A DNA stretch of 64,000 nt from Vicinamibacterales bacterium (GTDB lineage Bacteria > Acidobacteriota > Vicinamibacteria > Vicinamibacterales > CAVVIG01). Position 1 is the stretch's first letter. Every line of letters begins with the position of its first letter. Position numbers and translations under genes: made by a program. The notes under the pieces are model-generated. The model did not search any database, had not been told where the DNA came from, and saw only the letters and a list, made by a program, of their open reading frames with translations. The stretch covers positions 209 through 64,208 of the forward strand of contig DASXIR010000153.1 in assembly GCA_036497895.1 (NCBI GenBank). Direction: 5' to 3'. This document shows, piece after piece, positions 13,527 to 48,778 of the stretch.

Positions 13527-13528
13527 AA

Positions 13529-16255: not shown

Positions 16256-16259
16256 CGAC

Positions 16260-16347
16260 TGCAAAATGCCGAATGCAAAGTGCAAATTGCACGGCTCGGA
16301 AATTGTCCAATGCAAATCTGCAATTAGCAATTTGCAATCAGCAATTA
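16260..16347. repeat. AT-rich tandem heptamer/octamer array, (T/A)GCAA(A/T)N units
   Basis: Two blocks: tgcaaaatgccgaatgcaaagtgcaaattgcac and tgcaaatctgcaattagcaatttgcaatcagcaatta. The second block is 12/37 G+C. It lies inside the operon between the Moco and FAD subunit genes. Confidence 0.8.
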
Positions 16348-16360
16348 TGAGGGACGCAAC

Positions 16361-19771: not shown

Positions 19772-20033
19772 CGCGAGCGTCAGACGGCAAACGCATCCGC
19801 AAGCGTCACCTGGCGCGGCGCCGTTGATTCGCCACTGACGATCGGATCACCTGGTGGCCCAACTGATTGTCAGATGTCGTGCGGATCACGTCAGGCGACG
19901 CGTGGACCGTCAGGTCAGCGCTGGAGGATGCGTTTGCCACGCGAGCCGTCCGCGGGAGCAAGGGCACTCGCGACAGTCGGCGCGTGCAGGCGTGCGGTGA
20001 ACGTCGCTCGGCTGAAGCCTCGGCGCGTCGCAG

Positions 20034-27216: not shown

Positions 27217-27245
27217 CGGCGGAACCGCGATCGGTCATCGCGCTG

Positions 27246-28220: not shown

Positions 28221-28252
28221 ACTCGTTGGGCGCCCGGGAAGGAGATCGTCGG

Positions 28253-28822
28253 ATGGCTGCGGAAGAACGCGCTGAACAACGCATCGGAACCGTCCTGCCG
28301 GACGTGACGCTGGCGACAGTGACGCCACCCCACGACTCGTGGCGACTCCACGAGGCCGCAGGAAAGAGCCGCGGCGCGCTGCTCGTGATCTGGTCGAGCG
28401 TCTGTTCGCACTGCGCCCGCTACGACGAATACATGAACGCGTTCGCCTCGAACCATCCCGAAATCACCATGGTCGCCGTGGCATCGCGGCAAGGCGAAAC
28501 GGAGGACGAGGTCCGCAAGGCGATGGAGGCGCGTCGGTTGTCCTTTCCGGTCCTTTACGACACCGGGTCCGCGGTGGCGCGCCAGCTGTTCACGCAGCAG
28601 ACGCCGCGGGTGTTCCTCGTCGATGCCGACAGCCGGCTGGTATATCGTGGCGCCATCGACAATTTCAAGTACGCGGAAGACACCGAGTACGAGGCGTATC
28701 TGGAGCCGGCAATCAAGAGCTTGCTGGCGGGCGAACCGGTTGCCCGGCCGGACACACCCAGCTTCGGCTGCGCGATCGCGTCCGTCTACTACACGATTCC
28801 GCGACCCTTGAAGAAGGCCTGA
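28253..28822 (+). CDS. Thioredoxin-like (TlpA/redoxin-type) CxxC protein, paralogue of 23374..23931
   Basis: LVIWSSVCSHCARYD, QQTPRVFLVD..LVYRGAIDN, SFGCAI. SD GGAAGGAG lies upstream of ATG 28253. The track ORF 27881.. is an upstream extension overlapping the TauE-like gene. Confidence 0.8.
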   Translation: MAAEERAEQRIGTVLPDVTLATVTPPHDSWRLHEAAGKSRGALLVIWSSVCSHCARYDEYMNAFASNHPEITMVAVASRQGETEDEVRKAMEARRLSFPVLYDTGSAVARQLFTQQTPRVFLVDADSRLVYRGAIDNFKYAEDTEYEAYLEPAIKSLLAGEPVARPDTPSFGCAIASVYYTIPRPLKKA

Positions 28823-28829
28823 GGCGCCC

Positions 28830-31190: not shown

Positions 31191-31238
31191 CCGGGCTCGT
31201 GGCTCGTAAAACGCCGAACTGTTCGTGATCCTCCAGCC

Positions 31239-32636
31239 ATGACCAACCCCGATCAGGCGCTCCAGGCACAACTGCGCGGCACCTTGCTCCGTCCTGGCGA
31301 CGGCGGCTACGACGATTCGCGCACCATCTGGAACGGAATGATCGATCGCCGTCCCGCGCTCGTCGCCCGATGCGTCGGTGTCGGCGACGTGGTCGCTTGC
31401 GTTCGCTTCGCGCGCGAGCAGCGGATGCCGCTGTCGATCAAGGGCGGCGGCCACAACATCGCAGGCCTCGCGGTCTGCGACGACGGGCTGATGATCGACA
31501 TGTCGCTGATGCGCGGCGTCTGGGTCGATCCGATCGGCCAGGTCGCGCGCGCCCAGGGCGGCTGCACACTCGGCGATCTCGATCGCGAGGCGCAGCTGCA
31601 TGGGCTCGCCGCGGTGCTGGGGTTCGTGTCGCAGACCGGCATCGGCGGCCTCACCCTGGGCGGTGGGTTCGGTTACCTGACCCGGCGCTTCGGCTGGGCT
31701 TGCGACAACATCCTCTCGGCCGAAGTCGTGACCGCCGACGGACGCGTCGTCAGAGCCAGCGAGCGCGAGAACGGCGAGCTGTTCTGGGGGCTCCGTGGCG
31801 GCGGCAGCAACTTCGGCATCGTCACCAGCATCGAATACCGGATGCATCGCGTCGGACCCGAGATTTACGGCGGCGTGATCGCGTGGCCGGCCGATCGGGC
31901 GGGGGCAGTCTTCGAGACGCTTCAGCGTGTTTTTGAGGACGCACCTGCCGAGTTGTCGTGCGTCCCGCTGATGCGAAACGCTCCGGCGGCGCCGTGGCTG
32001 AACCCGGACATCCACGGCAAAGCGATCGTGGCGTTGTTCGTCTGCTACTCCGGCGCAATCGCGGACGGGGAAAAGGTGCTCGCACCGCTCAAAGCGGTCG
32101 GCTCGCCGGCCGGCGACGTCGTTAAAAACCGGACCTATGTCTCGCAGCAGAGCCTGCTCGACGCGACGCAGCCCAGAGGCCGGCGCTATTACTGGAAGTC
32201 CGAGTATCTACCGGGCATCACACCCGAGATTCTCGGAAAGCTTCGCGAACACTCGGCGCGGGTGACGTCGCCGCATTCGGCGATCCTGATTTTCCCGATC
32301 GACGGCCGCCTGAACACACTGTCGACGAATCATTCGGCGGTCGGCAACCGCGACGCCAGGGCCGTGTTCAACATTCAGGGCTCGTGGGAACGGCCGGAAG
32401 ACGATGCGGTGAATATCGAGTGGGCGCGCAGCGCGTGGCGGGACATCAGGCCGTTCTCGACGGGCGGGACGTACGTCAACTTCCTGACCGAGGAAGAGGG
32501 CGACGATCGTACCCGCGCCGCCTACGGCGCGAACTACGATCGTCTCGTCGAGGTGAAGACCAAGTGGGATCCGGACAACCTGTTCACGAGCAACAAGAAC
32601 ATCGCGCCGGCACGACCTCCTCACAGTCGCATCTAG
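31239..32636 (+). CDS. FAD-linked oxidase with a berberine-bridge-enzyme (BBE) C-terminal domain
   Basis: 465 aa. LSIKGGGHNIAG (FAD_binding_4 with the His used for covalent FAD in this family). C-terminal YVNFL..YGANYDRLVEVKTKWDPDNLF (BBE domain). Confidence 0.85.
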   Translation: MTNPDQALQAQLRGTLLRPGDGGYDDSRTIWNGMIDRRPALVARCVGVGDVVACVRFAREQRMPLSIKGGGHNIAGLAVCDDGLMIDMSLMRGVWVDPIGQVARAQGGCTLGDLDREAQLHGLAAVLGFVSQTGIGGLTLGGGFGYLTRRFGWACDNILSAEVVTADGRVVRASERENGELFWGLRGGGSNFGIVTSIEYRMHRVGPEIYGGVIAWPADRAGAVFETLQRVFEDAPAELSCVPLMRNAPAAPWLNPDIHGKAIVALFVCYSGAIADGEKVLAPLKAVGSPAGDVVKNRTYVSQQSLLDATQPRGRRYYWKSEYLPGITPEILGKLREHSARVTSPHSAILIFPIDGRLNTLSTNHSAVGNRDARAVFNIQGSWERPEDDAVNIEWARSAWRDIRPFSTGGTYVNFLTEEEGDDRTRAAYGANYDRLVEVKTKWDPDNLFTSNKNIAPARPPHSRI

Positions 32637-32666: not shown

Positions 32667-34187
32667 TCAGAACCTGATCAACCACTCCAAATACGCGAGA
32701 TGCCCGCCGCCACTGGTCGGAAAAATAGTGTGCGCGACGTCGCCGCTGTGGGCGTACGCGTAATAGAGCGTCAGCGCGACGTGTGGGTTGATGGTGATGT
32801 CGCCCTGAACGTCATAGAGTGTCGCCAGGCTGGTGTGTCCATTCGACGTCCGGCCGTTGAAGCCGAATGAGTTCGGCTGAAATGCACCGCCGCCCGAATA
32901 CCAGAGGTCGTGGCTGTCGGCGAGGCTCAGCGCGTGAACATCGCTGCGGATTGTGAAGCGGCTGACCGGCCGGACGATCAGCTCGCCGAACGCATCCACG
33001 TTGTTCATCATGTTGAAAAACGGCATGCGCGCGTAGATACGCGCCGTCGGCAGCACCTGGAAGTACGTGCCGTGCTTGCCGTCGGTAGGATTGCTGTCAC
33101 CAGACGAGTAGTCGTAGCCGGCGCGGATCCACGGCTTCAAGCTCGGAAGGCCCGAGGGCTGCCAGCCGATCTCCGCCGCCATTGCCCCGGCCCGATGTGA
33201 CAGCGTGCCCCACGAGCCGGTCTGCAGCACGCCCCAGAACATCAGGTCGACCGGGCCGGCCGGCGTGGCCGCCAGCTGCAGGAAATTTCCGCCGTAAGTG
33301 CCGATGTTGATGTTCTCGGTGTCTGCCGCCTTCGCCGCCGCCGGGCGGTTATCGGTCTTCACCAGGCCGCTGCCGTAGGCACGGTAGTCGTTGTAGCCGA
33401 GCGCGAAGACGCGCCACAGTGACGGATTTTTTTCGCTGCCGCCCTGACCGGTCAGCGCTCCGTAGAAGACGTTGATGTGCAGCTCGTTCCACCCGTTCAC
33501 CTGAAATACACCTTCGGTCGGGCGTGCTGCGACCGCGGTGAAATTCAGCTTGGGCGTGTTGAACACGTACTGTCCGCCGTCGAGACTGCGAAGCACGTCT
33601 GAGAAGCCGAAGTTTCCAAGCACGCGCTGGCTGATGCGGTCGCGATTGAGCGCCGCCAGTGTCCCGTTCTTCGGCGTGGTCTCCAGGCCGTCGTTGTACT
33701 CGAACCGTCCGACCTTCAGCGACTGCCCTGCGACACCACCGAGGCCCTTGAACCGAACGTAACCCTGCTTGAGGAAAATCGCCGCGGGGTTTTCGCTGTT
33801 GCTGTTCGCGGCGTAGTAGTTGGCGCCGAGGCCCAGTTGCCCCTGCGGCGGCGGCTGCACCGCGGTGGTGGGCAAATTGATCATGAACGGCACCTCGAAT
33901 TCGAGCTGCCAGTCATACGCCTTCTTTGTCTGCGTGACCCCGAAACGAATCTGTGTGCCCTGGTAGGTGTAGTTGCCGTCCGGTGTGTCGCCGAACCAAC
34001 CCCAGTCGTACGTGCGACTCCTGAGCGTGGTTGAGAACACGACATCGTTGCCTAGGTCGATCGCCGGCGGAGCCGGGGTCTGTGCCGATGCCGCAAGGCC
34101 TGAGCTAGCCAGCAACACGAGCGAAAGGGCAGATGTTCGAGAGCTACGTCGGAAGCGATTTGAGATCATGCTGGGGTTGTGACTCAT
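32667..34187 (-). CDS. Outer-membrane beta-barrel protein (alginate-export/AlgE-like porin candidate)
   Basis: Signal peptide ..SALSLVLLASSGLAASAQ. Alternating Gly/aromatic-rich strands and a C-terminal ..YLEWLIRF (terminal Phe). The track ORF runs to 35618, but that part is antisense to the ClC gene. The start is 34187 or 34169. Confidence 0.55.
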   Translation of the reverse strand: MSHNPSMISNRFRRSSRTSALSLVLLASSGLAASAQTPAPPAIDLGNDVVFSTTLRSRTYDWGWFGDTPDGNYTYQGTQIRFGVTQTKKAYDWQLEFEVPFMINLPTTAVQPPPQGQLGLGANYYAANSNSENPAAIFLKQGYVRFKGLGGVAGQSLKVGRFEYNDGLETTPKNGTLAALNRDRISQRVLGNFGFSDVLRSLDGGQYVFNTPKLNFTAVAARPTEGVFQVNGWNELHINVFYGALTGQGGSEKNPSLWRVFALGYNDYRAYGSGLVKTDNRPAAAKAADTENINIGTYGGNFLQLAATPAGPVDLMFWGVLQTGSWGTLSHRAGAMAAEIGWQPSGLPSLKPWIRAGYDYSSGDSNPTDGKHGTYFQVLPTARIYARMPFFNMMNNVDAFGELIVRPVSRFTIRSDVHALSLADSHDLWYSGGGAFQPNSFGFNGRTSNGHTSLATLYDVQGDITINPHVALTLYYAYAHSGDVAHTIFPTSGGGHLAYLEWLIRF

Positions 34188-34244
34188 TGCTAGTTTGAAA
34201 GCATTAAGGCGCGAGGGCGCCGCATCGGTCACAATAAGAGATCG

Positions 34245-35552
34245 ATGCCAATGACGCGCGTCCGGGGGTTTACGCGGCTGATGCTGGCCGCGATACTCGC
34301 CGGGCTGCTGTCGGGCCTGGGTTCGATCGCGTTCCACTACCTGGCTGACACGTTCGGCGACGAACTTTTTCACTGGGCCGAGACCAACGAGGTGCTGCAC
34401 CGGCTGCCCGTCGTGGTCATTGTTCCCACGCTCGGGCTGCTGCTGGTCGGGGCAGTCCTTCAGATGATTCCGGAAGCGCGCTTCGGTGGCGTGCCTGAGG
34501 TACTGGAAGCGATCGACCACAAGGGTGGCGTCGTTCGACCGATCCGACTGCTGAACATTTTCCTCAGCGGTCTGGTGCTGGCATTCGGCGGATCCGTCGG
34601 TCCGGAAGGCCCGATGGTTCAGCTCGGCGCTGTCGTCAGCAGTTGGGTTGGACAGCGATTTGGGCTGACGCGGGCCAACCTCCAAACCATCGTTCGAGCT
34701 GGAGCCGCCGCTGGCGTCGCGGCGGCGTTTCGGTCGCCGGCGGGCGGCGTGCTGTTGACGCTCGAGGTATTTGGCGCCCGGTTCAATCAGGATCTGACCG
34801 CGATCTCCGTCGCAGCCGGCATCGGTTATGTGACGCGCACTGCCATTCTCGGCGACGCGTACCCCTTCCGGCCAACGGTGCCGATGGAGAACGTGCCGCT
34901 CGCCGGACTGCTGCTCGTCGTCCCCGTGATGGGGTTGCTGGCAGCGCCCACCGGCCATCTCTTCATTCGGATGTTCGAACGTTTTCAGACGGTTTTTCCA
35001 AAACACTGGCCGCTGTCGATCAGGGTCGCCTTTGGCGGGCTTCTGGTCGGATTGATCGGCGTCTGGTTTCCTCAAGTGCTGTCGGCCGGATATCCGGTGA
35101 TCGACCGGGTCATTCACTCCGGCATGCCGTTCTACCTGCTGGTCACCCTGCTGCTGCTGAAGATGCTGGCGACGTCGATCACGTTTGGTTCGGGCGCGGT
35201 GGGCGGACTGTTCGCACCGACGTTGGTGATGGGCGCGCTCTATGGCGGAGCGATTGGCTACGGTGTTCACGCTCTGGCGCCGAACCTGGTGCCCCAGCCG
35301 GAATTGTTCGTGCTCCTCGGCATGGTGGTGATGTTCGGCTCCATCGTCAAAGGTTATTGGAGCGGCCTGCTGATGATCGCGGACCTCAGCGGCTGCTATC
35401 ACCAACTGCTGATGCCCGGCGTGATTGCCGGCGGCATCTCGTTCTTCTTCAGCTGGGAAATCTACGATCGTTCGATCTTCGGGCTCGCGATCGATCCCGC
35501 CAACTCCGGCAAGGCGCAGGAGGAGGAGGAGGAAGCGGTCGGCGTCGGCTGA
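34245..35552 (+). CDS. ClC-family chloride channel/transporter (short form, no CBS domains)
   Basis: 435 aa. GSVGPEGPMVQLGA (GxEGP selectivity motif with the gating Glu) and GAVGGLFAPTLVMGA (GxFxP). Confidence 0.85.
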   Translation: MPMTRVRGFTRLMLAAILAGLLSGLGSIAFHYLADTFGDELFHWAETNEVLHRLPVVVIVPTLGLLLVGAVLQMIPEARFGGVPEVLEAIDHKGGVVRPIRLLNIFLSGLVLAFGGSVGPEGPMVQLGAVVSSWVGQRFGLTRANLQTIVRAGAAAGVAAAFRSPAGGVLLTLEVFGARFNQDLTAISVAAGIGYVTRTAILGDAYPFRPTVPMENVPLAGLLLVVPVMGLLAAPTGHLFIRMFERFQTVFPKHWPLSIRVAFGGLLVGLIGVWFPQVLSAGYPVIDRVIHSGMPFYLLVTLLLLKMLATSITFGSGAVGGLFAPTLVMGALYGGAIGYGVHALAPNLVPQPELFVLLGMVVMFGSIVKGYWSGLLMIADLSGCYHQLLMPGVIAGGISFFFSWEIYDRSIFGLAIDPANSGKAQEEEEEAVGVG

Positions 35553-35707
35553 TCGGCGTCTACTCCGCAGACAATCCGCCAGGCTCGGACGTCCGCGGCT
35601 GGCTCTCTGACAGGTCACCGTTGAGGATCGCCGACCAGTTGACGTTGTCGCCGTTCACGTGGGAAACGACGCGGGTCCATCCGCGCGTCCCGAGCGGCGC
35701 TCGTCTG

Positions 35708-36499
35708 CTAGCGTCCATCGCGGAACCCCCATCGAACCGACGGCAGCCGCTCGGCCCGGCGGATCACGAAGTCCAGCGCCAGACCGATCAGGCCGATCAT
35801 GATCATCGCGGCGACGACCAGGTCGTAGCGCTTGCCGGAGTTACGGGCATCGATGACCAGGTAACCGAGCCCGGAGTTCGAGGCGATCATTTCCGCCGCC
35901 ACGACCACCAGCCACGCGATTCCGAGCGCGATTCTGAGACCGACCAGCATCTGCGGCAACGCCGCCGGCAGGACCACCCTCGTGAGAAGCTTCGCCGGCG
36001 ACAATCCGAAATTCCGCCCGGCGCGGCGATACATCGCCGGCACGTTACGGACGGCGTTCATGGCGGAAACGACGATCGGAAAAAACGCGGCCAGGAAAAT
36101 CAGGTAGACGGCCGCCGTGTCGGTGATGCCGAACATGATGATCGCGACCGGAATCCACGCAATCGGGCTGATCGGCCGCAGAATCTGAATCGCCGGATTG
36201 ACGACGGTTGCGGCCGCGGGATACCAGCCGAGCAACAGACCGCATGGAATGCCGATGAGGATGGCGCTGCCATAGCCAAAGGCGACGCGCCGCAGCGAGT
36301 CGCCGATGTATTGCCACAGCAAGCCGCCATTCATCAGCTGGGCGGTCCCGCGCTCGACCGCGAGCGGTGATGGGAAGACGTCCGTGTGGCTCCACTTGAC
36401 CGCATAGTTCCACATCAGCAGCAATGCGCCGGCGGTGAGGAGCGGCAGAACCAGCGGCTCCAGGCGCTCCTGCATCGGGGTCGATCCCGCGGTGCTCAT
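35708..36499 (-). CDS. ABC transporter permease (NitT/TauT nitrate-sulfonate-bicarbonate type)
   Basis: 263 aa, about 6 TM segments. AVRNVPAMYRRAGRNFGLSPAKLLTRVVLPAALP (EAA-loop region typical of SsuC/TauC-like permeases). It overlaps the ATPase gene by 4 nt. Confidence 0.85.
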   Translation of the reverse strand: MSTAGSTPMQERLEPLVLPLLTAGALLLMWNYAVKWSHTDVFPSPLAVERGTAQLMNGGLLWQYIGDSLRRVAFGYGSAILIGIPCGLLLGWYPAAATVVNPAIQILRPISPIAWIPVAIIMFGITDTAAVYLIFLAAFFPIVVSAMNAVRNVPAMYRRAGRNFGLSPAKLLTRVVLPAALPQMLVGLRIALGIAWLVVVAAEMIASNSGLGYLVIDARNSGKRYDLVVAAMIMIGLIGLALDFVIRRAERLPSVRWGFRDGR

Positions 36500-37302
36500 A
36501 CCTTGTGCGCCAGGCCAATGGCTTCGAGGATGCCGTCCCGCAGGGCCAGGTATCTGGACGAGCTGATGTCGCGCGGATGGGCGATGTCGATCGGCACGAC
36601 CTTCTGAATCTTCGCAGGACGAGCACTCATCACGATGACCCGATCGGCCAGCTGGACGGCCTCGTCGATGTCGTGAGTGACGAAGATGATCGTCTTGCGT
36701 GCGACGGCGCAGATCCGAAGAAGCTCGCCGCGCATGATCAGGCGGGTGATCGAGTCAAGGGCGCCGAACGGCTCGTCCAGAAACAGCATGTCCGGGTTCA
36801 CCGCCAGCGCGCGCGCGACCTCGACGCGTTGTTTCATGCCTCCCGAGAGTTCACGCGGGTAGGCTTTTTCGAAGCCCTTGAGCCCGACCAGTTCGACGTA
36901 GTGCGCGATCCGCTGCGTCCGCTCCGATTCAGACAGCGCGCTCAAGCCGAAGCCGATGTTGCCTTCGACCGTGAGCCACGGAAACACGCCGCGCTCCTGA
37001 AACACGAAGACGCGGCGGCGGTCCGGACGGTTGACGATCTCACCGTCGATCCGCACTTCCCCGTGGCTCGGCTTGAGAAAGCCGGCAACGACATTCAGCA
37101 GCGTGGACTTACCGCAGCCGGAGGGGCCGAGCAGGCAGACGAACTCGCCGTCGCCGACCTCGATGCTCACGTCATCGAGCACGTTAATCTCTTCACCGGT
37201 GCGGCCGAAGGTCATGCTGATGTGATCGGTGCGAAGCTTCGCCCTGAGCCCGGCCGGCCTGGCGTGGGCGATTTCCTGCAACACGGCCGTAGTGCTAATC
37301 AT
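36496..37302 (-). CDS. ABC transporter ATP-binding protein (NitT/TauT type)
   Basis: Walker A LLGPSGCGKSTLLN, signature LSGGMKQRV, Walker B MLFLDEPFGALD. ATG 37302 overlaps the upstream permease stop by 8 nt. The track ORF start 37380 is rejected. Confidence 0.9.
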   Translation of the reverse strand: MISTTAVLQEIAHARPAGLRAKLRTDHISMTFGRTGEEINVLDDVSIEVGDGEFVCLLGPSGCGKSTLLNVVAGFLKPSHGEVRIDGEIVNRPDRRRVFVFQERGVFPWLTVEGNIGFGLSALSESERTQRIAHYVELVGLKGFEKAYPRELSGGMKQRVEVARALAVNPDMLFLDEPFGALDSITRLIMRGELLRICAVARKTIIFVTHDIDEAVQLADRVIVMSARPAKIQKVVPIDIAHPRDISSSRYLALRDGILEAIGLAHKV

Positions 37303-38077
37303 CCGAATATCCCCAACTGATGGACGGAACTTTCTCCAGCGACTTGACGCCGATATCGAGCAGCAGCCCGATGACCCCAATCATCACCATGCCGGCGACG
37401 ACCAGGTCGTAGCGGTTGCCGGCGTTACGGGCGTCGACGATCAGGAAGCCGAGGCCGGAGTTGACGGCGATCATTTCCGCCGCGACCACAACCAGCCAGG
37501 CAATGCCGAGCGTGATGCGGAGCCCGAGGATCAACTGCGGCGTCACGGCCGGATACAGCACCCGAAAGACGATCTGCGAACGCTTCAGGCCGAAGTTGCG
37601 ACCGGCGTTCAGATAGACATCGGGAATGCTGGCAACGGCGTTCATCGCGGTGACGGTCAGCGGCAGGAACGAAGCGAGGAAGATCAGGAAAATCGCCGCG
37701 ATGTCGCCGACGCCGAACCACAGGATCGAGATCGGAATCCACGCCAGGGGAGAAATCGGGCGCAGCAACTGAATGATCGGGTTGAAGGCATACTCCGCCC
37801 GGCGGTAGAGGCCGAGGGTCAGGCCGATCGGAATGGCCAGGATGGCAGCGAGCGCGAAGCCCCAGGTCACGCGAAACAGCGAGGCGACCACGTATCGCAT
37901 CAAGCGGCCGCTGACCGCCAGTTCGACCAGCGCTTTGGCGACCAGCCACGGTGTCGGCAGAATCGGCGCCCGCTGAACTCCGATTGCAACTTGCCAGACC
38001 AGCAGCAGCACCGCGATGAACGCAATCGGACCGTATCGGGCGATGGCTGTCGAGGATGTTCGAACCGGTGGTTTCAC
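37295..38077 (-). CDS. ABC transporter permease (NitT/TauT type), second copy
   Basis: 260 aa, GTG start. VASIPDVYLNAGRNFGLKRSQIVFRVLYPAVTP. Paralogue of 35708..36499. Confidence 0.85.
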   Translation of the reverse strand: MKPPVRTSSTAIARYGPIAFIAVLLLVWQVAIGVQRAPILPTPWLVAKALVELAVSGRLMRYVVASLFRVTWGFALAAILAIPIGLTLGLYRRAEYAFNPIIQLLRPISPLAWIPISILWFGVGDIAAIFLIFLASFLPLTVTAMNAVASIPDVYLNAGRNFGLKRSQIVFRVLYPAVTPQLILGLRITLGIAWLVVVAAEMIAVNSGLGFLIVDARNAGNRYDLVVAGMVMIGVIGLLLDIGVKSLEKVPSISWGYSDD

Positions 38078-38253
38078 GCGAGTGCCAGCCGATCAGCGCG
38101 CTGCAGCAGCAGAAATAGCGGCCGGTGAAAGTTGAAGCAAGCTGGGATTCTACGTCAGCAATCCCATCCACGACACGAAGGTTGGAGCTCAAACCATCGT
38201 GCCGGCAAAGGCACTAATGCCTTTGCACTACTCGCGCGTGGCCGAGGGAGAGG

Positions 38254-39501
38254 TCAGGTGCGGGGGTTTTCGAGACGCATCGCGAGCGGGTAGCCGCGCT
38301 TTCGCGAACCCGCCGCTTCGTCGCGCGCGTGCTCGATCAGTTCGGCTTCGAGTGCGCCCTTGGGCTGCCAGTCCTCGAGCAGGCCCGGAAGATACCAGTC
38401 GAAGAACACCTGGCTGTAAATCAGCCCGTTCTGGAACGCGGCGCGGATCGATCGCTCGAACGGAATGGCGCTCTGCTCCAGCACGTTCGGCATGTCCTCG
38501 CTGTTCATCATCGCGAACGCGAAGGCCGCGCCGTGCACCGCCGGTTCAACGCGATCGGCAGGATACGTGGTCGCTTCTTCGATCGCCTTGTAGATGCTCA
38601 TGTTGCTGAACGCGACCAGCCGGCCGTAGCCATGCACGATCAGCCGCTGCAGATCCGGCGGATATTGCTTGAGGTAATCGCCGAACAGATTGGCGGCGTT
38701 GGGACCGTCCGGTGCGTCGAGACGAATCAGCCCGAGCGATCCGCTCATCAGCTTGAAGAAGCCGCGTTCGTAAATCCGCAGGATCGCGCCGATACCCTCG
38801 TAGGCGAAACCCAGATAGTCCGGCGCGCAGGTGCTGGCAAACAACGCGTTCAACCTCGCGACGTCGAACACCATCTCTTCGGTCGAACCGGAGCCGAAGC
38901 CGACGTGCGCGATCGGCAGCACCTCGCGCGGCAGCTTGGGATCGGCCAGCGAATTTTCAGGAAGAAGATGCTTGCCGATCGAGGTGGCCAACCCTTCGGA
39001 CTTCCACAGGCCGGTGACCGCCTTGGCGCGCTCGACCGGACGTCCGAGCGAGTCGTGTTGATAACCGGTCAGCCGCTGGACGAGATCTTCCTGCAGCACG
39101 CCATGATCGACGGCGCCGGACGCAACGGTCTTGACGCCTGCCACCCGGCGCGGAACGCTCGTCATCAGCGGGATGGTGAGCGCGGAGGTGGATCCAGCCG
39201 GCGCCTGACCTTTCGGCACCATGCCGACCGCATGAAACGCGGCATCGACGATTCCGCTCTGCACGTTGGCGCCGACCGCGAACGCGGTACGCACGGCGCC
39301 CGACAACTGACCGCCCGCGGCTTTGGTGACTTCGTCCAGCGACGGCGTGCCTGGTTTCGGCCGCGATACCAGCGACGTCACCTGACGCGCGGCCAGCAGC
39401 GACATCGCGAGGGAAAATTTGCCGACTGACTTCATGAAGTCGCCGGTGCTCTGCATCATGTCGGTCAAGAGGCCACTCCTCGAACCAGGCTGATCCGCCA
39501 C
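38254..39501 (-). CDS. Hypothetical protein, DUF1702/UnbL-like (tentative)
   Basis: 415 aa. The blocks YLGFAYEGIGAIL, IAHVGFGSG, LIVHGYGRLVAF and AVHGAAFAFAMMN resemble, from memory, the GFAYEGxxM / GxGFAxAR / DGYGF / GxGRxLWF blocks of DUF1702. It is a distant paralogue of 47383..48759. Confidence 0.5.
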   Translation of the reverse strand: MADQPGSRSGLLTDMMQSTGDFMKSVGKFSLAMSLLAARQVTSLVSRPKPGTPSLDEVTKAAGGQLSGAVRTAFAVGANVQSGIVDAAFHAVGMVPKGQAPAGSTSALTIPLMTSVPRRVAGVKTVASGAVDHGVLQEDLVQRLTGYQHDSLGRPVERAKAVTGLWKSEGLATSIGKHLLPENSLADPKLPREVLPIAHVGFGSGSTEEMVFDVARLNALFASTCAPDYLGFAYEGIGAILRIYERGFFKLMSGSLGLIRLDAPDGPNAANLFGDYLKQYPPDLQRLIVHGYGRLVAFSNMSIYKAIEEATTYPADRVEPAVHGAAFAFAMMNSEDMPNVLEQSAIPFERSIRAAFQNGLIYSQVFFDWYLPGLLEDWQPKGALEAELIEHARDEAAGSRKRGYPLAMRLENPRT

Positions 39502-39555: not shown

Positions 39556-40194
39556 CTAGGCTCGCGGAAAGCGCGATTCCGACCGGACCGCGGCGATCTG
39601 GCTCTGATGGCGGCGCTCGTGACGAGCGAGAAACATCAGCATGTGCGGGACGTCGTTGGCGCCCATGAGCGGGTGTTCGGACACCATCGTGCTGAAGTCG
39701 AGGTCGCGGTTGCCATGGATGAGCTCGCGCGTCTCCGCGAACGCCGCACGCAGGTCACCTGTCAATTCTGCCGCGGGCCGGTGTCCCCGAGGCGTGGCGG
39801 CGTCGGGATTGCGCGTCGGCAGAATCGGAAACTCCGTGATCATCCCGATCACCGCGTCCGGTACGAATCGATTCACGAAGCCAAGCGGCGTCTCGAGCAT
39901 CGACAGCACAACGGTCGGGATGTGCAACGGCGACACGTTCACTTCGGCAAACGAACGTCTCAACCGAGCCGGCTTGCCGGCGCGCTGAAGTTCGACCAGA
40001 CGGCGGATTTCGTCGCGCCACAGCAACTCGGACAACCGCAGATGATCCACGATCTCGCCGATCGACCAGCGGCCCTGCCGCGGCGAGAAATCAAACTGCG
40101 CCTGCGACAGCGGCGCAATCGTCGCCAGTGTCTGCGCTCGAACGCCGCCGAAGGCCTGCAGACGTTCCTCGAGCGCCGCAGCTGCCGGCGTCAT
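39556..40194 (-). CDS. DinB-superfamily (DinB_2-type) protein
   Basis: 212 aa. WSIGEIVDHL (first metal-binding His region) and a C-terminal HMLMFLARHERRHQSQI four-helix-bundle His triad pattern. ATGA overlap with the upstream oxygenase stop. Confidence 0.75.
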   Translation of the reverse strand: MTPAAAALEERLQAFGGVRAQTLATIAPLSQAQFDFSPRQGRWSIGEIVDHLRLSELLWRDEIRRLVELQRAGKPARLRRSFAEVNVSPLHIPTVVLSMLETPLGFVNRFVPDAVIGMITEFPILPTRNPDAATPRGHRPAAELTGDLRAAFAETRELIHGNRDLDFSTMVSEHPLMGANDVPHMLMFLARHERRHQSQIAAVRSESRFPRA

Positions 40195-41612
40195 CCCTGG
40201 TGCTTCGAAAACGAGGAGTGAAACAGCGGCGGCAGAGCTGACGGCACGCGCAGCGTCGCCACCGGCCCGGCTGACAGGCGGAACGCATCGAACAGGACGA
40301 ACGACGACCGGCAGTGCTCCGCGTCGAAGAGCTGACAGAGGATCGTCCCCTGATTCGATCGCGACGGATCCGGCACGAACAGCGGCTCACCGCCGAAATA
40401 ATGTCGCGGCGGCGCGCCGAACACTTCGGCCGACCGGGTCGGCCAGTCGATGCGGACCACCTCGTCGAAGAACTTGCGGCCCGCATTCCCGGCGCGGCTC
40501 ATTCCCAGCATCCAGAAGTGATCGTAGGGCAGCCCGGTCAGATCGGGATCGTGCGCCGGAAAGTCCGGCGAGTTCGAGTACCCGACTTCTGCCCGCTCGA
40601 TCACCGAACCGGCAGCAAGGTCGACCGTCAACCGCAGCGGCCGTCCCCGGAAGCTGTCCGAGAACAGGTTGGGAATCGTCTGGTACTCGGGATACAGCGG
40701 CTTGTCGTAGTCGACAATGTCCACGATCAAGTGGCCGTCGCGCTCGAAGGCGTTGATCATGTGCAGGCAATAATGATCGCCGACCTCCAGCCGCGCCACC
40801 TCCTCACCGGTGTCGCGGGATGCGACGATCAACTGGCTGCCAAGCTCCGGCTGCCACGACAAGGCGTCCATCACGGTCGCGCCGTCCTGAATCAACGCCT
40901 CCATCCGCAATATGAGCGGGCTGACGTAGATGACGATGAAGCGCTCGCTGATCGCGAAATCGTGGGTGGACGCCGGATAGGGCAGCTTGAGCCGCTTGCG
41001 ATATTTCAGTGCGCCATCGGCGCCGAACCGGAACAGGTTGATGATCGGGTTCGCCGCAGCAAACGCGACGCAGAAGTTGAACAGCTCGCCGGTTCGATGA
41101 TCGACCTTCGGATGCGCGCTGAACGGCGTCACCTCGTTCAATTGCTGATCGAACGTGTAGAGGCCACGGGTCTCGCAGGTGCGCGCATCAATTTCCCACG
41201 GCAGCCCCTGTTCGCCGAACGCCAGGAGCCTGCTGCCGAACGGGTAGACGCTGACATTGACCGGCGACTCCAGGCCGACGCCTCGCTTCAATTGATCGCC
41301 TTCGAACGCGGTCCCGAACGTGCGGAACAGCGGCTTGCCCGCGGCGTCTTCGCGGACGAACTTCTCACTGCGCACGAAACGGTTGCTCACGCGGACGCCA
41401 TCCGGCCCGAAATCGACCGCGCAGACCATGCCGTCGCCGTCGAGCCAGTGCTTGTATTTCAGGCCGGCCCGTTCGAAGCGCGCCGGTCCATTGAAATACG
41501 CGGTACCACGGAGATACGACGGAATCGTGCCCTCAACGTCGAGCGCAATCTGCGCATGCTCGATCACCTCGATGCTGAACGCACGTTCGACGAAGGGCGC
41601 CAGGTCTTCCAC
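40191..41612 (-). CDS. Carotenoid/stilbene cleavage oxygenase (RPE65/CCO family)
   Basis: FNGPARFERAGLKYKHWLDGDGMVCAV, with His-containing blades (FSAHPKVD, STHDFAISE, CLHMINAF). The ORF opens at 41717, but that would overlap the halogenase by 106 nt. GTG 41612 overlaps the halogenase stop by 1 nt (TAGTG). Confidence 0.85.
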   Translation of the reverse strand: MEDLAPFVERAFSIEVIEHAQIALDVEGTIPSYLRGTAYFNGPARFERAGLKYKHWLDGDGMVCAVDFGPDGVRVSNRFVRSEKFVREDAAGKPLFRTFGTAFEGDQLKRGVGLESPVNVSVYPFGSRLLAFGEQGLPWEIDARTCETRGLYTFDQQLNEVTPFSAHPKVDHRTGELFNFCVAFAAANPIINLFRFGADGALKYRKRLKLPYPASTHDFAISERFIVIYVSPLILRMEALIQDGATVMDALSWQPELGSQLIVASRDTGEEVARLEVGDHYCLHMINAFERDGHLIVDIVDYDKPLYPEYQTIPNLFSDSFRGRPLRLTVDLAAGSVIERAEVGYSNSPDFPAHDPDLTGLPYDHFWMLGMSRAGNAGRKFFDEVVRIDWPTRSAEVFGAPPRHYFGGEPLFVPDPSRSNQGTILCQLFDAEHCRSSFVLFDAFRLSAGPVATLRVPSALPPLFHSSFSKHQG

Positions 41613-43402
41613 TACGCCCCCGATCCGCCGGCGGCCGCGCCGGTCAGCTCCGTTGCCTGGGTCCTGCGCGGCGTCCTGAACCCGAAGGCCGCCTCCGGAT
41701 TCCATCCCATCGGCCACATGTAGCGTTCCGAACAGGCCGCGTGCGCCGCGTAGTCCGCGGCCATTCGTGCCGGATCGAATGACAGCTTCTCGAGGTCGAG
41801 GCTGGACACGAACGATTGATTCCAGACAATTGCCGGTTCGTCGAGCACCATCGCGTAGACGTGTGCGGCGATGTAGCGCGCCAGCGTCATCGTGTTCGCG
41901 AACTGCTGGTCGAGAACGGCGCGCGCCTCGTCTATGGACACACCGACTTTATAGAAGGTCAGCTCGGCGACGCTGAGCGCGTGGATGTCGAAGAAGTCGA
42001 AGAAGACCGGGACGGTATTGGGTTCCCGGTTGATCTTTTTCCAGTGGTAGTACTGCTGCAGCAGCGTCAACAGACCGAGATTGACGCGACCGAGCCTGGT
42101 GAAGGTCCGCAGGAAGGCGACGATGAAACGGCGGTCGGTGAAGAGATCGTTGATGAACGGGAAGACGTAGAACGCGAAGTAGATGGTCAGCTCCCACACG
42201 TACTTCAGCGAATGCGCTTCCTGGTCGCCGAGGCAGTCGTATCCAATCTGAAAACTCGGCAGATACGCTGCATAGACTGCGCGCTCCAGTTCTTCGAACA
42301 GCGGTACCTTCGCGTCGAGCTCGGCCTGATCCGTGGTCAGGATCGACTCGACCACCAGCGTGTTGTAAATCGAGATCACGTCACCGCCGGGGCTGTACAG
42401 CGGATCCGACCAGCGGCCGGCTTCCCCGACCATCGCCCAATGACGGCGATCGATCGTCTGCACCGCGTCGAACGAATAGTCGCGGAAGCTGCCGGAATGG
42501 AGAACCGTCCGCTTCGGCAAGTCGCGTTCGAACGCCGGAAAATGCTCGCAAATCCACTTGACCAGCAGCTTTGGATCGTTGACCGCCTCGGGCTTGAGCA
42601 CCCGCGTGTCGTAGACCAGACCGAGGCTGGTGATTCCCGGCAGCGGAATCACCCACAACCACAGCCCCTCTTCGACGAAATGGTTGGTGGCCAGCCAGAA
42701 TGGCAGATGACCGAGCTGCGCGCGCTGCGGGTTGAGACGAATCTGTTTCGGCGTAGAGTCGGTCAGATTCTCGTAATTGAGAAGACCCTCCACCCACAGG
42801 AACGACGCGCCGTGACGGATGTTGTTCGACTTCTGAAGGTTGAGTTTCTTCTGCAGCACGTGGGCGCGGCCGGCGCAGTCGACGACCCAGCGCGCGGTGG
42901 CGGTCTTGCGCTCGCCGTCCACCACGTACGACACGGTGTGCGGGCCGCCTTGTTCGTCGAGATCGATCGAGAGATCGAGCGCGTGGCGATCGAAGGTGTA
43001 GCGATCGCCGGCCGCGAGATTGCGGCCGAGCAGCTCGCGTTCGAGCTCGTTGCGATTCAGCTGATAGCTGGCGACGTTGGACATCCGACGGATGTACGAC
43101 TGGCTGTAGTTCTCGATGCGGGTCGGGTCCAGGCCCTCGGTCTTCCAGATGAAGCGGAGGTTGTACTTCATGTAGTGCTCGCGAATGAGGTATTCCTCGA
43201 GCTCGAGCACCTTGGACCAGTAGTAGCCACTCACCTGAACCGTGGCTTCGCCAACTTTCTGTGCGGCCGGAGGCACCTGCAGTCGCTTGTCCACAGCCAG
43301 GATCCTGACCCCGGCGTCGGCCAGCAGCAGCTGTCGCGCCAGCGACAAGCCCGCCAGCCCCGCCCCGACGATCACCACATCAAATTTGGACGGCTCGCTC
43401 AT
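41612..43402 (-). CDS. Flavin-dependent halogenase-like protein (tryptophan-halogenase family)
   Basis: 596 aa. N-terminal FDVVIVGAGLAGLSLA (GxGxxG), KVGEATVQ, GLWLWVIPLPG (the WxWxIP motif that distinguishes halogenases from monooxygenases), and DPLYSPGGD. A candidate catalytic Lys lies in HYMKYNLRF. There is a long C-terminal extension. Confidence 0.7.
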   Translation of the reverse strand: MSEPSKFDVVIVGAGLAGLSLARQLLLADAGVRILAVDKRLQVPPAAQKVGEATVQVSGYYWSKVLELEEYLIREHYMKYNLRFIWKTEGLDPTRIENYSQSYIRRMSNVASYQLNRNELERELLGRNLAAGDRYTFDRHALDLSIDLDEQGGPHTVSYVVDGERKTATARWVVDCAGRAHVLQKKLNLQKSNNIRHGASFLWVEGLLNYENLTDSTPKQIRLNPQRAQLGHLPFWLATNHFVEEGLWLWVIPLPGITSLGLVYDTRVLKPEAVNDPKLLVKWICEHFPAFERDLPKRTVLHSGSFRDYSFDAVQTIDRRHWAMVGEAGRWSDPLYSPGGDVISIYNTLVVESILTTDQAELDAKVPLFEELERAVYAAYLPSFQIGYDCLGDQEAHSLKYVWELTIYFAFYVFPFINDLFTDRRFIVAFLRTFTRLGRVNLGLLTLLQQYYHWKKINREPNTVPVFFDFFDIHALSVAELTFYKVGVSIDEARAVLDQQFANTMTLARYIAAHVYAMVLDEPAIVWNQSFVSSLDLEKLSFDPARMAADYAAHAACSERYMWPMGWNPEAAFGFRTPRRTQATELTGAAAGGSGA

Positions 43403-43435: not shown

Positions 43436-43487
43436 TAAATCCTCAGATCCTTAAATCCTCAAATCCTCAAATCTTCAAATCTTCAGA
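43436..43487 (-). repeat. Tandem octamer array TGA(A/G)GATT (gene-sense strand), SD-like
   Basis: On the minus strand it reads TGAAGATT TGAAGATT TGAGGATT TGAGGATT TAAGGATC TGAGGATT. The first two units encode the last residues (..EDLKI) of the 769-aa protein. The third unit supplies its TGA stop (43469-43467). The rest fills the gap before the halogenase start. Confidence 0.85.
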
Positions 43488-45776
43488 GGTCCAATCGGGC
43501 ACCATGCGCCAGACCTGCAGCAAGCGGTGCAGCATGTCCTCGTGCTGTTTGAAGTGCGCTAACAGCATACGCTTCTCGAGCACCGCCTTCGACAGGCCGA
43601 GATGCTTCTCCGCCAGGCCACCGGTCATCGCGTTGGCCATCCACAGGTAGGCCGCGACCGGATCGACCCGGCTGGCCTTGAGCGGCAGGCGTTCGGTCAT
43701 CGCGAGCACCGGGCTCACGATCCGCGAGGCCATCCGGAACGTGACGCGGTCGGCGACCTGCAGGCCCCAGCCGATCGGATCCACGTCAACGGCCGCGATC
43801 CGGTCCGGCCGGTTGACCACGAAAAGCGTCCGCGCGCGAATCTCACCGTCGGCGGTCAACCTGAACGTGATCGTCTGCACGCCGCAGTGCACATATCCCG
43901 ATCGGTTGGCGAGCATGCCCGTCTTGCCGGCCGGGTTTGGGACAAAGGCGAAACCGTACCCGTACTCCGCAAGATCGATCGATCCAGGACCGTCCGTGTC
44001 CGTCACGAGACCAGGGCCGATCATCACGTACCCCGAATCGGTCGAGGCCTCGGCCTTCAAGACGATCCAGTCGTATTTCGAGCCGATCTCGCGCAAGTCC
44101 ACGATCTGCGCGCGCTCCTGGTTGACGAACTTGCCGATCTGACCGGTCGCCGCCAGCTTGAAGTACAGCTGCTGATACGACGTGCCCGCCATCCCGCTGA
44201 CGCGAAGCAGATAACGCAGGACGAATTCTCTGAGCTGCGCACGGATCGTTTCGGGATCGCCAACCTTCTGGCGATCGAAAAACAGGTCCTGCGCGAAACC
44301 CATGACCCCCAACCGGCTGCCGCCGACCGCGGCCTCGTCGAAAAACCCGAAGCCCTCGTCTGCCGGACCGTACTCCGAGGAGACGGGCAGCCGTTCGGCG
44401 TAATCCTCGTTGCGTTGCTTCCGTTGAAACCAGCGCTGGATTTCCCCGCCATCCGCGAGCGCGCGCTCGGCGAGGTCCAGCACTTCGAGATCGGCGGGCA
44501 GCATCGAGAGCGCCGTGCTCTCCACCAGCTGGAAATCCCGGGCCGAGATCAGCCGCACGTCAGCGCCGGACGTCGCGGCGATTCGCGGCCCGCCTGGAGC
44601 ACGGAACCGTCCGCGTTCGTCCACCAACCACAGGGTGTAGATGGTGGACGCGGCGCCATCAGGCATCACTGCAGTGTCCATCGACAATAGTCCGGACGCG
44701 CTGCTGAGAGCCCCGGTCCCGGACGACAGCTGGCCGTAGGCAATAACCCGCGACGCCTGGTCGCCGGCATGCCCGTCGCGATAGGTTGTGCCTTCGAGCG
44801 CATCCGCGACAATGGTCGCGACCGCACGGCCGGCGACGTCGCTGAGGATCAGTTCACGGCGTCCGTCGATCAGCCGGACCGCACATCGTCTGTCGGACGG
44901 GTCGAACCGGAGCGGGCCTCTGGCGTAACCGATCCGCTCGCCCTCTCGAAACAGGCTGCGGGGCCGACTGGCGTGCGCCAGATCGTTCTCGACGCGCGCC
45001 AACCGGATGTGCTCGTCAACCAGTCCGGCGCCGGCTCCCCCGTCGGACTCGCCGGCGAGGGTGAACACTCTCGTGTCCCGGTCAACGTTCAGGTTGTCGA
45101 GAATCGGTCCCAGCGTCTCAGCCGCTTCGAACGGTCCGTCATCGTCGAATCGTCCGGTCACCACGAGCGACGCCAGCGAACGCGACGCGATCTCGCCCAT
45201 CAGCGTGATGCTGCCACGCAGTCCCTTCAAGCTTCCCAGACCATCGACGACCACCGCCGCACCGGCAAACAGCAGGCGCGACACGCCATCCACCGATGAT
45301 GACGGATAGGTGCGGCCGGCGCCAAAAAAGCGGAGGCCGCTGCGGGTGCGATCCTCGAACCGCAGCACGCCACTCTGGATCACGAAGCGCTGCGACTGCG
45401 ACGCGTCGAGCTCAGTCGGAGGAGGCGGCATCGACGGTGTGGCTTCGAAGCCGTCGGGGGCGACCAGCCACCGCAGCGTCAGCGTCGCGAGCCGCTCGCC
45501 GATGCGGTTGGCACTCGTGATGCCGCTCTCCGACGTCGGAAGGCGTGCGTCGGCATCGAGGCGGTGCAGCGTTTCGCGAACGTCGAGGCCGCAGACCTGG
45601 ACCGGAAGCAACGGTGCGATCGACGCCGCCGTCGGTCCCGCCAGCGACATCAGGCCGGTCGAGAGCAGCGCCTCGCCGACCGGATTGCTGCCGACCAGGA
45701 TCGGCACCGACGCCCCGAGACCGGCCGTCGTCAACGAGAGATAGCCTGCTGATGGCGCGGGCGGCCGGACGATCAT
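43467..45776 (-). CDS. Large hypothetical protein: unknown N-terminal ~440 aa plus a C-terminal 'REIGSKY' domain
   Basis: 769 aa with GC3-rich codons. 4-nt gap to the upstream gene. The C-terminal ~320 aa aligns with 20034..21023 (see that entry). No family recognised. Confidence 0.7.
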   Translation of the reverse strand: MIVRPPAPSAGYLSLTTAGLGASVPILVGSNPVGEALLSTGLMSLAGPTAASIAPLLPVQVCGLDVRETLHRLDADARLPTSESGITSANRIGERLATLTLRWLVAPDGFEATPSMPPPPTELDASQSQRFVIQSGVLRFEDRTRSGLRFFGAGRTYPSSSVDGVSRLLFAGAAVVVDGLGSLKGLRGSITLMGEIASRSLASLVVTGRFDDDGPFEAAETLGPILDNLNVDRDTRVFTLAGESDGGAGAGLVDEHIRLARVENDLAHASRPRSLFREGERIGYARGPLRFDPSDRRCAVRLIDGRRELILSDVAGRAVATIVADALEGTTYRDGHAGDQASRVIAYGQLSSGTGALSSASGLLSMDTAVMPDGAASTIYTLWLVDERGRFRAPGGPRIAATSGADVRLISARDFQLVESTALSMLPADLEVLDLAERALADGGEIQRWFQRKQRNEDYAERLPVSSEYGPADEGFGFFDEAAVGGSRLGVMGFAQDLFFDRQKVGDPETIRAQLREFVLRYLLRVSGMAGTSYQQLYFKLAATGQIGKFVNQERAQIVDLREIGSKYDWIVLKAEASTDSGYVMIGPGLVTDTDGPGSIDLAEYGYGFAFVPNPAGKTGMLANRSGYVHCGVQTITFRLTADGEIRARTLFVVNRPDRIAAVDVDPIGWGLQVADRVTFRMASRIVSPVLAMTERLPLKASRVDPVAAYLWMANAMTGGLAEKHLGLSKAVLEKRMLLAHFKQHEDMLHRLLQVWRMVPDWTSEDLKI

Positions 45777-47364: not shown

Positions 47365-47382
47365 CGTGTTCGGACGCCGGTG

Positions 47383-48759: not shown

Positions 48760-48778
48760 GGGATCCTCCGGGCTGGCC

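Follow-up and report, generated by a model that had tools for sequence, protein, structure and literature searches.

Two genes, here called A and B, in a 64,000-nucleotide stretch of contig DASXIR010000153.1 from a Vicinamibacterales bacterium (the window, meaning that whole stretch) encode members of a large, unnamed protein family without Pfam assignment, and lie in an undescribed gene cluster centered on UbiB. The array around them recurs across at least five phyla; it comprises a pair of UbiB/ABC1 genes (ABC1a and ABC1b), proteins carrying the N-terminal tag domain that A and B share, two further unknown domains, a flavin adenine dinucleotide (FAD) enzyme, an RPE65-family oxygenase and a DinB protein, to which Redoxin and UnbV/CRTAC1 genes, a TauE gene and an ABC exporter with an outer-membrane protein are often added. 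The reading that we prefer, and hold to be rather probable, is that A and B represent a family of two-domain proteins, characterized by a ladder of polar residues, the tag and a conserved synteny, which acts as a partner of the ABC1 pair.

Both open reading frames (ORFs) are present, on the minus strand, at exactly the coordinates given for them in an earlier, sequence-only reading of this DNA. The window has a GC content of about 65% and its best protein matches are to metagenome-assembled genomes (MAGs) of Vicinamibacterales (Acidobacteriota). ORFs on the opposite strand at 38329..39429 and 47209..48789 were rejected as coding, being typical high-GC shadow ORFs; the minus-strand frames of A and B are taken as real because they have hundreds of conserved homologs and give confident folds (AlphaFold2 models, both entirely helical, with a predicted local distance difference test score, pLDDT, of 84.4 for A and 80.1 for B and a predicted template-modeling score, pTM, of 0.81 and 0.77, respectively). 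A BLASTP comparison of A with B extends over 335 columns at 23% identity (E 9e-10), and when the alignment of the A orthologs (53 sequences) was compared by hhalign with that of the B orthologs (55 sequences) the match covered 319 columns with a probability of 98% (E 2.8e-13). The two are genuine, distantly related paralogs, well beyond chance. Searched with hidden Markov models (HMMs) of either family, the window yields these two copies and no others; a candidate third paralog at 27135..28220, after the second ABC1 pair, proved to be a TauE/SafE membrane protein and no degenerate relative.

The four Gly-aromatic blocks that the sequence-only reading had listed as common to A and B all fall in matching columns of the joint A/B alignment: HVGFGSG of A against HAGIGMS of B (H199 aligned with H225), GFAYEGIGA against LESLGLA (E235 with E274), HGYGRLVAF against HGAGRAMYF (H290 with H308), and HGAAFAFAMM against AGVGWALSVV (G324 with G351). 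The joint alignment has 21 invariant columns which, in A numbering, are K24, G77, D86, W166, E169, H199, G201, G203, E235, G238, R242, H290, G291, G293, R294, F298, P314, G324, G359, W378 and A392.

Homologs are numerous, 259 for A and 175 for B, all of them annotated as hypothetical and none with a Pfam domain. At E ≤ 1e-3, an exhaustive HMMER search with the joint A/B profile gave representatives of 1505 clusters (50% identity), 431 of them with E ≤ 1e-30, and a scan of one genome per species gave 205 family loci. The hosts include all classes of Acidobacteriota as well as Planctomycetota (Pirellulaceae, Gemmataceae), Latescibacterota, Zixibacteria and Nitrospinota, and A and B occur together on several contigs, including L002 and L011 (loci are given L numbers here). 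Neither protein matches anything in Pfam, NCBIfam or PADLOC. PADLOC likewise returned nothing for ABC1b, the neighboring 769-residue protein, a tag-only protein or a class I cargo protein, and for ABC1a generic kinase-domain similarity only, so that the cluster is without a defense-system signature; a tblastn search of plasmids with B gave no match. Among the family representatives, single members are fused to a Radical_SAM, an Endoribonuclease L-PSP or a helix-turn-helix domain, and in locus L082 an ABC1 gene overlaps a 614-residue family gene by 4 nt.

A and B are cytosolic two-domain proteins, with no transmembrane segment and no evident signal peptide. The C-terminal core, of about 300 residues, is all-alpha, and in the models six motif helices alternate with partner helices, giving six predicted helix-pair repeats. 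The core motifs of A are W166/E169/G170, H199/G201/G203, E235/G236/G238/R242, H290/G291/G293/R294, G324, G359 and W378, and its predicted motif helices are H158-177, H192-209, H227-244, H282-299, H315-332 and H350-370, with each motif inside one of them; in B the motifs are W181/E184/G185, H225/G227/G229, E274/G277, W307/H308/G309/G311/R312, G351/W354, G387 and W422. The repeats thus follow a mid-helix pattern of a polar residue plus G-x-G, which runs W..EG, HxGxG, E[GS]xG, (W)HGxGR, G...A and G from the first to the last. Across 100 diverse family representatives at about 30% identity, E184, G227, G229, G277, G311 and R312 (B numbering) are invariant in all 100, and W181, H225, E274, W307, H308, G351, W354, N360, G387 and W422 are conserved in at least 90%.

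Searches for a known fold were unproductive. Foldseek found nothing in the PDB at E below 0.09 for the model of either A or B, with TM scores no higher than 0.27; the top neighbors, all non-significant, were ARM, HEAT, TPR and designed repeat proteins, and the squalene-synthase and ARM/TPR matches were set aside as meaningless at such TM scores and with a root-mean-square deviation above 15 Å. By sequence, neither the core profile nor the tag profile has a credible match in the PDB. Membership of the ARM/HEAT/TPR superfamilies finds no backing in a significant structural match for A or B, nor in a Pfam repeat match for A, B or the 100 representatives, and the mid-helix G-x-G motif is not the HEAT consensus. 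A likeness of another kind is to HEAT-repeat metalloenzymes such as deoxyhypusine hydroxylase (DOHH), which have His-Glu motifs in their repeats; there too, all-alpha helix pairs would place conserved His and Glu residues at equivalent positions of successive repeats, and the resemblance may be read as an analogy.

The same architecture could be that of a scaffold, A and B being non-catalytic helical-repeat adaptors, regulatory subunits or substrates of ABC1/UbiB kinases with no ligand or metal chemistry of their own. The all-alpha build of six helix pairs and the identity of the best, non-significant, Foldseek neighbors are in keeping with this, as is the fact that B is sandwiched by two ABC1 genes in many phyla, and plant ABC1 kinases do phosphorylate partner proteins. 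We nevertheless regard it as unlikely, since in the 100 representatives Glu, His, Glu, His and Arg recur, invariant or nearly so, at equivalent mid-helix positions, a pattern seen more often in active or ligand sites than on scaffold surfaces, and many family genes have no adjacent ABC1 gene.

The N-terminal tag is a helical domain of about 75 residues, which has low pLDDT in the monomer models of both A and B. Its pattern is K-S-x5-[FW]-[SA]-x-S-[LM]-[LF] ... D-x-V ... Q-L-x-G ... G-x-x-x-Q-x-G-x-V-D; the consensus in A and B is KS..FSWAMSLFG.QQ ... D.VT ... QL ... GD..QRG.VD, and both match the tag HMM. That HMM, covering the first 75-90 residues, detects 135 ORFs in the fetched loci, 67 of them with the core and 68 without it, while 45 ORFs carry the core without the tag. 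The stand-alone tag proteins are 100-240 residues long and typically lie between ABC1a and the core gene, and tag-only proteins of other phyla match the N-terminus of B with BLASTP E values of 1e-9 to 1e-18. Within the clusters the tag is also N-terminal on alpha/beta-hydrolases (Abhydrolase_1) and on Pfam-less proteins of about 1030-1135 residues, and in Pirellulaceae the tag hydrolase is additionally fused to the N-domain of the 769-residue neighbor. In 20 proteins, none of them of the tag-plus-core type, the motif GWG[PA][MVLI]P follows the tag, past a low-complexity linker; of its 21 occurrences among 3434 locus ORFs, 20 fall in tag proteins. The tag profile has no credible relative in the PDB or Pfam, a match to ThreeFoil (E 5e-5, with no stretch passing alone) being treated as a compositional artifact, as this is a designed repeat protein. 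The tag is a separable, conserved domain, distributed among these proteins in the manner of a shared module for docking or targeting.

In the window, A and B belong to a 13-gene minus-strand array extending from 51626 down to 32667 with operon-like spacing (gaps of at most 89 nt, or overlaps), in the order PALP enzyme, ABC1a, B, ABC1b, 769-residue unknown protein, FAD enzyme, RPE65 oxygenase, DinB_2 protein, A, 255-residue unknown protein, ABC ATPase, permease and Alginate_exp-like protein (Table 1). B has a UbiB/ABC1 paralog on either side and A, which follows DinB, does not. All four ABC1 proteins of the window have two predicted C-terminal transmembrane helices, which suggests that they are membrane-anchored. 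When the window proteins were compared by tblastn with 77 related loci, homologs were found for the domains of the 769-residue protein in 53, the commonest neighbor of the family, for ABC1b in 52, ABC1a in 50, the FAD enzyme and the RPE65 oxygenase in 22 each, UnbV in 17 and DinB in 16, counts that are inflated by common descent inasmuch as related MAG lineages supply many of these loci. Acidobacteriota classes, Planctomycetota, Latescibacterota, Zixibacteria and Nitrospinota all preserve the order ABC1a, (tag), core, ABC1b; the strict arrangement of ABC1a-tag followed by core-ABC1b is found in 21 of 66 non-close loci, and in 24 of the 66 ABC1b comes immediately after a core-bearing ORF. The order DinB then A is seen again in L002, L011 and L080. 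The set of 255-residue protein, ABC ATPase, permease and outer-membrane protein is found again alongside UnbV and family genes in loci of Terriglobia and Bryobacterales (L054, L058, L062, L065, L073), and family genes in L024, L054, L062, L065 and L073 have the Redoxin-UnbV pair and TauE as neighbors.

Table 1. Features of the A/B gene cluster in the window, with examples of tag proteins from other loci
Feature	Coordinates	Strand	Description
Gene A	38254..39501	-	415 aa (404-aa version in the NCBI call); N-terminal shared domain and six-repeat all-alpha core
A tag	39226..39450	-	residues ~18-92; aligns to B residues 9-68
A core	38257..39039	-	residues ~155-415; six helix-pair repeats (predicted)
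Gene B	47383..48759	-	458 aa; paralog of A; two-domain build as in A
B tag	48514..48744	-	residues ~6-82
B core	47386..48267	-	residues ~165-458; six repeats (predicted)
ABC1a	48779..50455	-	UbiB/ABC1 atypical kinase-like; PF03109 E 1.4e-58; immediately upstream of B, 19-nt gap
ABC1b	45781..47364	-	divergent ABC1/UbiB paralog; PF03109 E 3.9e-17; immediately downstream of B, 18-nt gap
769-aa protein	43467..45776	-	no Pfam; fusion of two unknown domains, residues ~60-393 and 420-765
FAD enzyme	41612..43402	-	596 aa; monooxygenase/reductase-like; FAD_binding_3, Lycopene_cycl; geranylgeranyl-reductase superfamily weak
RPE65 oxygenase	40191..41717	-	carotenoid/stilbene cleavage; PF03055 E 1.3e-101; lignostilbene-dioxygenase models E 7e-51, below cut-off
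DinB_2 superfamily protein	39556..40194	-	PF12867 E 5e-15; immediately upstream of A
255-aa protein	37425..38192	-	no Pfam; downstream of A, co-directional
ABC ATPase	36496..37380	-	downstream, co-directional
BPD_transp_1 permease	35708..36499	-	downstream, co-directional
Alginate_exp-like outer-membrane protein	32667..35618	-	983 aa; downstream, co-directional
Second unit	24036..32636	+	divergent from the array
ABC1c	24036..25691	+	second unit
ABC1d	25684..27216	+	second unit; stop/start overlap with ABC1c
TauE/SafE	27135..28220	+	second unit
Redoxin	27881..28822	+	second unit
FG-GAP/UnbV_ASPIC protein	28830..31190	+	second unit; with TPR segment
BBE/FAD_binding_4 oxidase	31239..32636	+	second unit
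FG-GAP/UnbV_ASPIC (CRTAC1-type) protein	21020..23374	-	PF13517 E 4.7e-47; PF07593 E 2.1e-11
Tag protein, other locus	L018:8001-8477		tag example (range L017-L077); GWGPMP motif (…STGWGPMPS…)
Tag protein, other locus	L034:12136-13470		tag example; GWGPMP motif
Tag protein, other locus	L044:8824-12198		tag example
Tag protein, other locus	L036:14723-17290		tag example
Tag protein, other locus	L036:8004-8423		GWGPMP motif

The sequence-only reading had placed A and B next to UnbV-domain proteins. The window does contain two UnbV_ASPIC genes, but A is 7.1 kb and B 16.2 kb away from even the nearer one, which belongs to another transcription unit. In the wider comparison, 17 of the 77 loci, drawn from Planctomycetota and several classes of Acidobacteriota, have UnbV/CRTAC1 genes no more than 8 kb from family genes. 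Three Terriglobia loci (L054, L062, L065) have UnbV directly upstream of, and co-directional with, the family gene, with gaps of -94 to +29 nt by the ORF calls; in L080, on a 1.96-Mb contig, an A ortholog is followed by four UnbV_ASPIC genes within 10 kb. Loci of the Blastocatellia/Pyrinomonadaceae type have two tandem UnbV copies upstream of ABC1a, Pirellulaceae have UnbV copies near tag-only genes, and in a Thermoanaerobaculia locus UnbV is on the opposite strand.

At least one acidobacterium has an expanded set of paralogous ASPIC/UnbV proteins (PMC3174227), and since UnbV-domain genes are multi-copy in Acidobacteria some of this proximity is to be expected by chance. One might go further and suppose that the whole neighborhood is without functional meaning, A and B being conserved hypotheticals in a syntenic block with UnbV nearby by accident, a view to which the descent of many loci from related MAG lineages and the existence of solitary family genes also lend something. 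It is, in our estimation, very improbable. The order ABC1a, tag/core, ABC1b is kept across five phyla, the tag is fused to different proteins inside the clusters, and the observed UnbV density of about one per 27-45 kb (42 UnbV-like ORF pieces in 1.13 Mb of flanks) would, if random, need well over 100 copies per genome. The idea of an UnbV partnership gains independent support from the placement of UnbV in the related loci, and a shared partner is plausible.

The assignment on which that idea was originally built, of A and B to DUF1702, the family of the enediyne protein UnbL, did not survive comparison with the Pfam model; the outcome is the one that the sequence-only reading had itself named as refuting it. 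An hmmscan gave no PF08012 match for either protein even at E ≤ 1 (the gathering score is 25 bits), and none for the 100 diverse family representatives at E ≤ 0.01 or, as for A and B themselves, at E ≤ 10; A and B are not detectable members of DUF1702. As a positive control, a tblastn search of plasmids with the window UnbV led to a genuine, compact enediyne cassette on the linear plasmid pSMg1-3 of Streptomyces sp. Mg1 (L001, NZ_CP011667.1, 12583..24043), in the order DUF1702, DUF1702, CRTAC1 (UnbV), RnfD-like membrane protein, type I polyketide synthase (PKS) of 1965 residues, thioesterase, and then a flavin reductase and a P450, where the two DUF1702 proteins score 442 and 419 bits against PF08012. 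The A, B and combined family HMMs score these genuine DUF1702 proteins at no more than 1.2 bits. Of the two halves of the proposal that UnbL and UnbV form a general module, the UnbV half gains support from its recurrence near family genes, abutting genes included, and the DUF1702 membership is not borne out.

The sequence-only reading had described the DUF1702 pattern itself accurately, and its block pattern and paralogy for A and B likewise stand. DUF1702 has six blocks about 37 residues apart (GFAYEG, YIGIGFA, DGYGF, DQGIGRALWF, SGVGLAATFAG and QGSVFA), invariant at residues 74-79, 113-119, 150-154, 188-197, 224-233 and 256-261; those of A lie at 166-170, 199-203, 235-238, 290-294, 324-328 and 359, and those of B at 181-187, 225-229, 274-278, 307-312, 351-355 and 387. 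In both cases a domain of about 320 residues, which is also about the length of the tag-less family members, carries six colinear blocks of the type polar-G-x-G-aromatic/Ala in fixed order at intervals of some 35-40 residues, a resemblance that does not amount to proof of homology. By hhalign the family matches a 36-sequence DUF1702 alignment weakly (probability 10.9%, E 0.0028, score 31.6, 183 columns), as does a 255-sequence core alignment (probability 8.2%, E 0.0042). The reversed DUF1702 profile scored 22.6 and 29 of 30 column shuffles scored 12.6-23.7, but one reached 33.5 and so exceeded the real score, for an empirical p of about 0.03-0.06. The block pairing is colinear: WAxEGLG with FAYEGAT, LHAGxG with YIGIG, WHGVGRAxYF with DQGIGRALWF, AGLAWA with SGVGLAA, and the C-terminal W with ELWR. 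When 3796 locus ORFs were ranked by the DUF1702 HMM, the core-bearing ORFs (3% of the total) made up 9 of the top 20 and 20 of the top 50 (Mann-Whitney p 5e-39), an enrichment of about 13-fold in which all scores are sub-threshold, at no more than 8 bits, the sequences are non-independent and many of the decoy ORFs are spurious.

Taken together with the occurrence of both families as paralog pairs, the recurrence of both beside UnbV/CRTAC1 (DUF1702-DUF1702-CRTAC1 in L001, UnbV adjoining the family gene in L054, L062 and L065) and the polyene-cleaving RPE65 oxygenase in the cluster, these matches raise the possibility that A and B belong to UnbL/DUF1702 as highly divergent members, and that a DUF1702-like protein with UnbV (CRTAC1) is a general module which enediyne cassettes have borrowed, for example for a conjugated polyene. 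This account, which overlaps our own, is possible but decidedly tentative. HMM-versus-sequence scores stay at or below 8 bits in either direction, alignments A1 versus A5 pair a different block register, as is expected of chance matches between repeat proteins, and the UnbV genes of the window, from a family that is expanded in Acidobacteria, are 7-16 kb away. There are differences of substance as well: A and B have the extra N-terminal tag, their conserved polar residues run E/H/E/H-R as against E/-/D/Q-R in DUF1702, their partners are UbiB/ABC1 kinases, and their hosts are Acidobacteriota and Planctomycetota rather than Actinomycetota. The narrower proposition that the core is an ancient and very distant relative of DUF1702/UnbL is plausible, if not quite probable. 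The PDB holds no solved DUF1702 structure, and in the literature we found DUF1702 only as an annotation label, with nothing on function for UnbL/SgcE3-5, diiodotetrayne or UbiB clusters in Acidobacteria.

That the context is not an enediyne one holds good. No ORF in the window exceeds 1024 residues, and tblastn with the PKSE, UnbU and thioesterase of L001 finds nothing there; in the related loci these queries gave only partial ketosynthase (KS)-like matches, in 7 of 78. Those matches, which share 24-32% identity with the L001 PKS in its KS region, are close to family genes, at L019:7135-7953, near 1-655 in L047, L052 and L068, and at about 320-1470 in L007 and L008, and they are probably stand-alone KAS/FabF-type genes and not a PKSE.

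Some details of the neighboring genes deserve mention. The two domains of the 769-residue protein occur in other phyla as separate genes of about 420 residues, often in several tandem copies (L040, L055, L058, L072); relationships of its halves to each other, to A and B or to DUF1702 were considered and rejected, with hhalign probabilities of at most 0.6%. The listed RPE65 ORF shares 106 nt with the end of the FAD gene and is matched by the Pfam model from residue 55 on; its true start is probably downstream of the first GTG. Further ORFs of 255-545 residues without a Pfam domain are found at 57725..59362 (minus), 19915..21066 (minus), 51535..52386 (plus) and 37425..38192 (minus); conservation of the 255- and 283-residue ORFs does not extend beyond the closest Vicinamibacterales loci. 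An unrelated molybdenum hydroxylase set occupies 13181..18213 on the plus strand (a MoCoBD large subunit of 1024 residues, a FAD_binding_5/CO_deh_flav_C subunit and a cytochrome b561-like membrane protein), and the rest of the window consists of housekeeping genes.

How a partner of the ABC1 pair might work can be sketched as follows. The tag would serve as a docking or assembly module, gathering different cargo domains at the membrane-bound ABC1a/ABC1b pair, by analogy with UbiJ and UbiK. The six-repeat core may bind a metal, a hydrophobic substrate of polyene or isoprenoid type, or both, through the Glu/His/Glu/His-Arg ladder on its successive helices. The UbiB-like ATPases would hand this substrate over from the membrane for subsequent modification by the oxygenases, flavoprotein and hydrolases encoded nearby. 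The substrate suggested is a conjugated or isoprenoid lipid derived from the membrane, because of the RPE65-family oxygenase, the flavoprotein resembling lycopene cyclase and geranylgeranyl reductase, and UbiB biology; the specific substrate and the metal are the more doubtful part of the proposal, and we place them on the unlikely side.

The closest functional parallel is the ubiquinone metabolon of E. coli, where UbiB works with the accessory factors UbiJ and UbiK. Both systems set a membrane-anchored UbiB-family protein beside helical or lipid-handling accessories and flavin monooxygenases, and in both a hydrophobic substrate would be delivered to a soluble enzyme assembly, the parallel being one of function only. 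A and B lack the SCP2 domain of UbiJ and have no detectable similarity to UbiJ or UbiK; each unit here has two ABC1 paralogs; the cluster has no ubiquinone methyltransferases and no UbiA, UbiD or UbiX; and the ABC1 proteins score far below the equivalog cut-off of the UbiB model TIGR01982 (255 against 488 bits), which ABC1a matches at E 8e-76.

Several points tell against the partner reading and its chemistry. First, the PDB sequence and fold searches with A and B put no solved or comparable structure behind a ligand, a metal or a partner, and the predicted spatial clustering of the E/H/E/H-R residues is derived from repeat geometry only. Secondly, there are solitary tag-plus-core genes with no ABC1 within 8 kb (L013, L016, L056, L069), and A itself is not adjacent to any ABC1 gene; the ABC1 link is frequent, not obligatory. 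Thirdly, helical-repeat proteins are scaffolds more often than enzymes. Finally, the cluster yielded no synthase for isoprenoids or carotenoids, and the polyene or isoprenoid idea draws only on RPE65, the flavoprotein and UbiB.

The A/B family is thus an interesting lead, not a solved case. At its most ambitious it could be seen as part of a multi-phylum machine in which the tag assembles six-repeat proteins, alpha/beta-hydrolases and the unknowns of about 1100 residues on a pair of UbiB-family ATPases, the core being a non-enediyne ancestor of UnbL that would act with CRTAC1/UnbV on a membrane-derived conjugated lipid, a polyene-processing module which the enediyne "warhead cassette" would later have recruited; we offer this as a speculation and consider it improbable. 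The family nonetheless touches two old open questions, the role of UnbL and UnbV in enediyne core biosynthesis and the mechanism of UbiB/ABC1 proteins. If the DUF1702 link is true, hundreds of non-enediyne loci with UnbL-like proteins and UnbV would provide a comparative handle on UnbL and UnbV. Whatever becomes of that link, the ABC1a, tag/core, ABC1b unit is a compact and testable bacterial system for partner recruitment by the UbiB family, and the list of families worth modeling gains at least four domains of some size that have no Pfam entry, namely the tag, the six-repeat core and both halves of the 769-residue protein, carried by abundant and poorly studied soil phyla.

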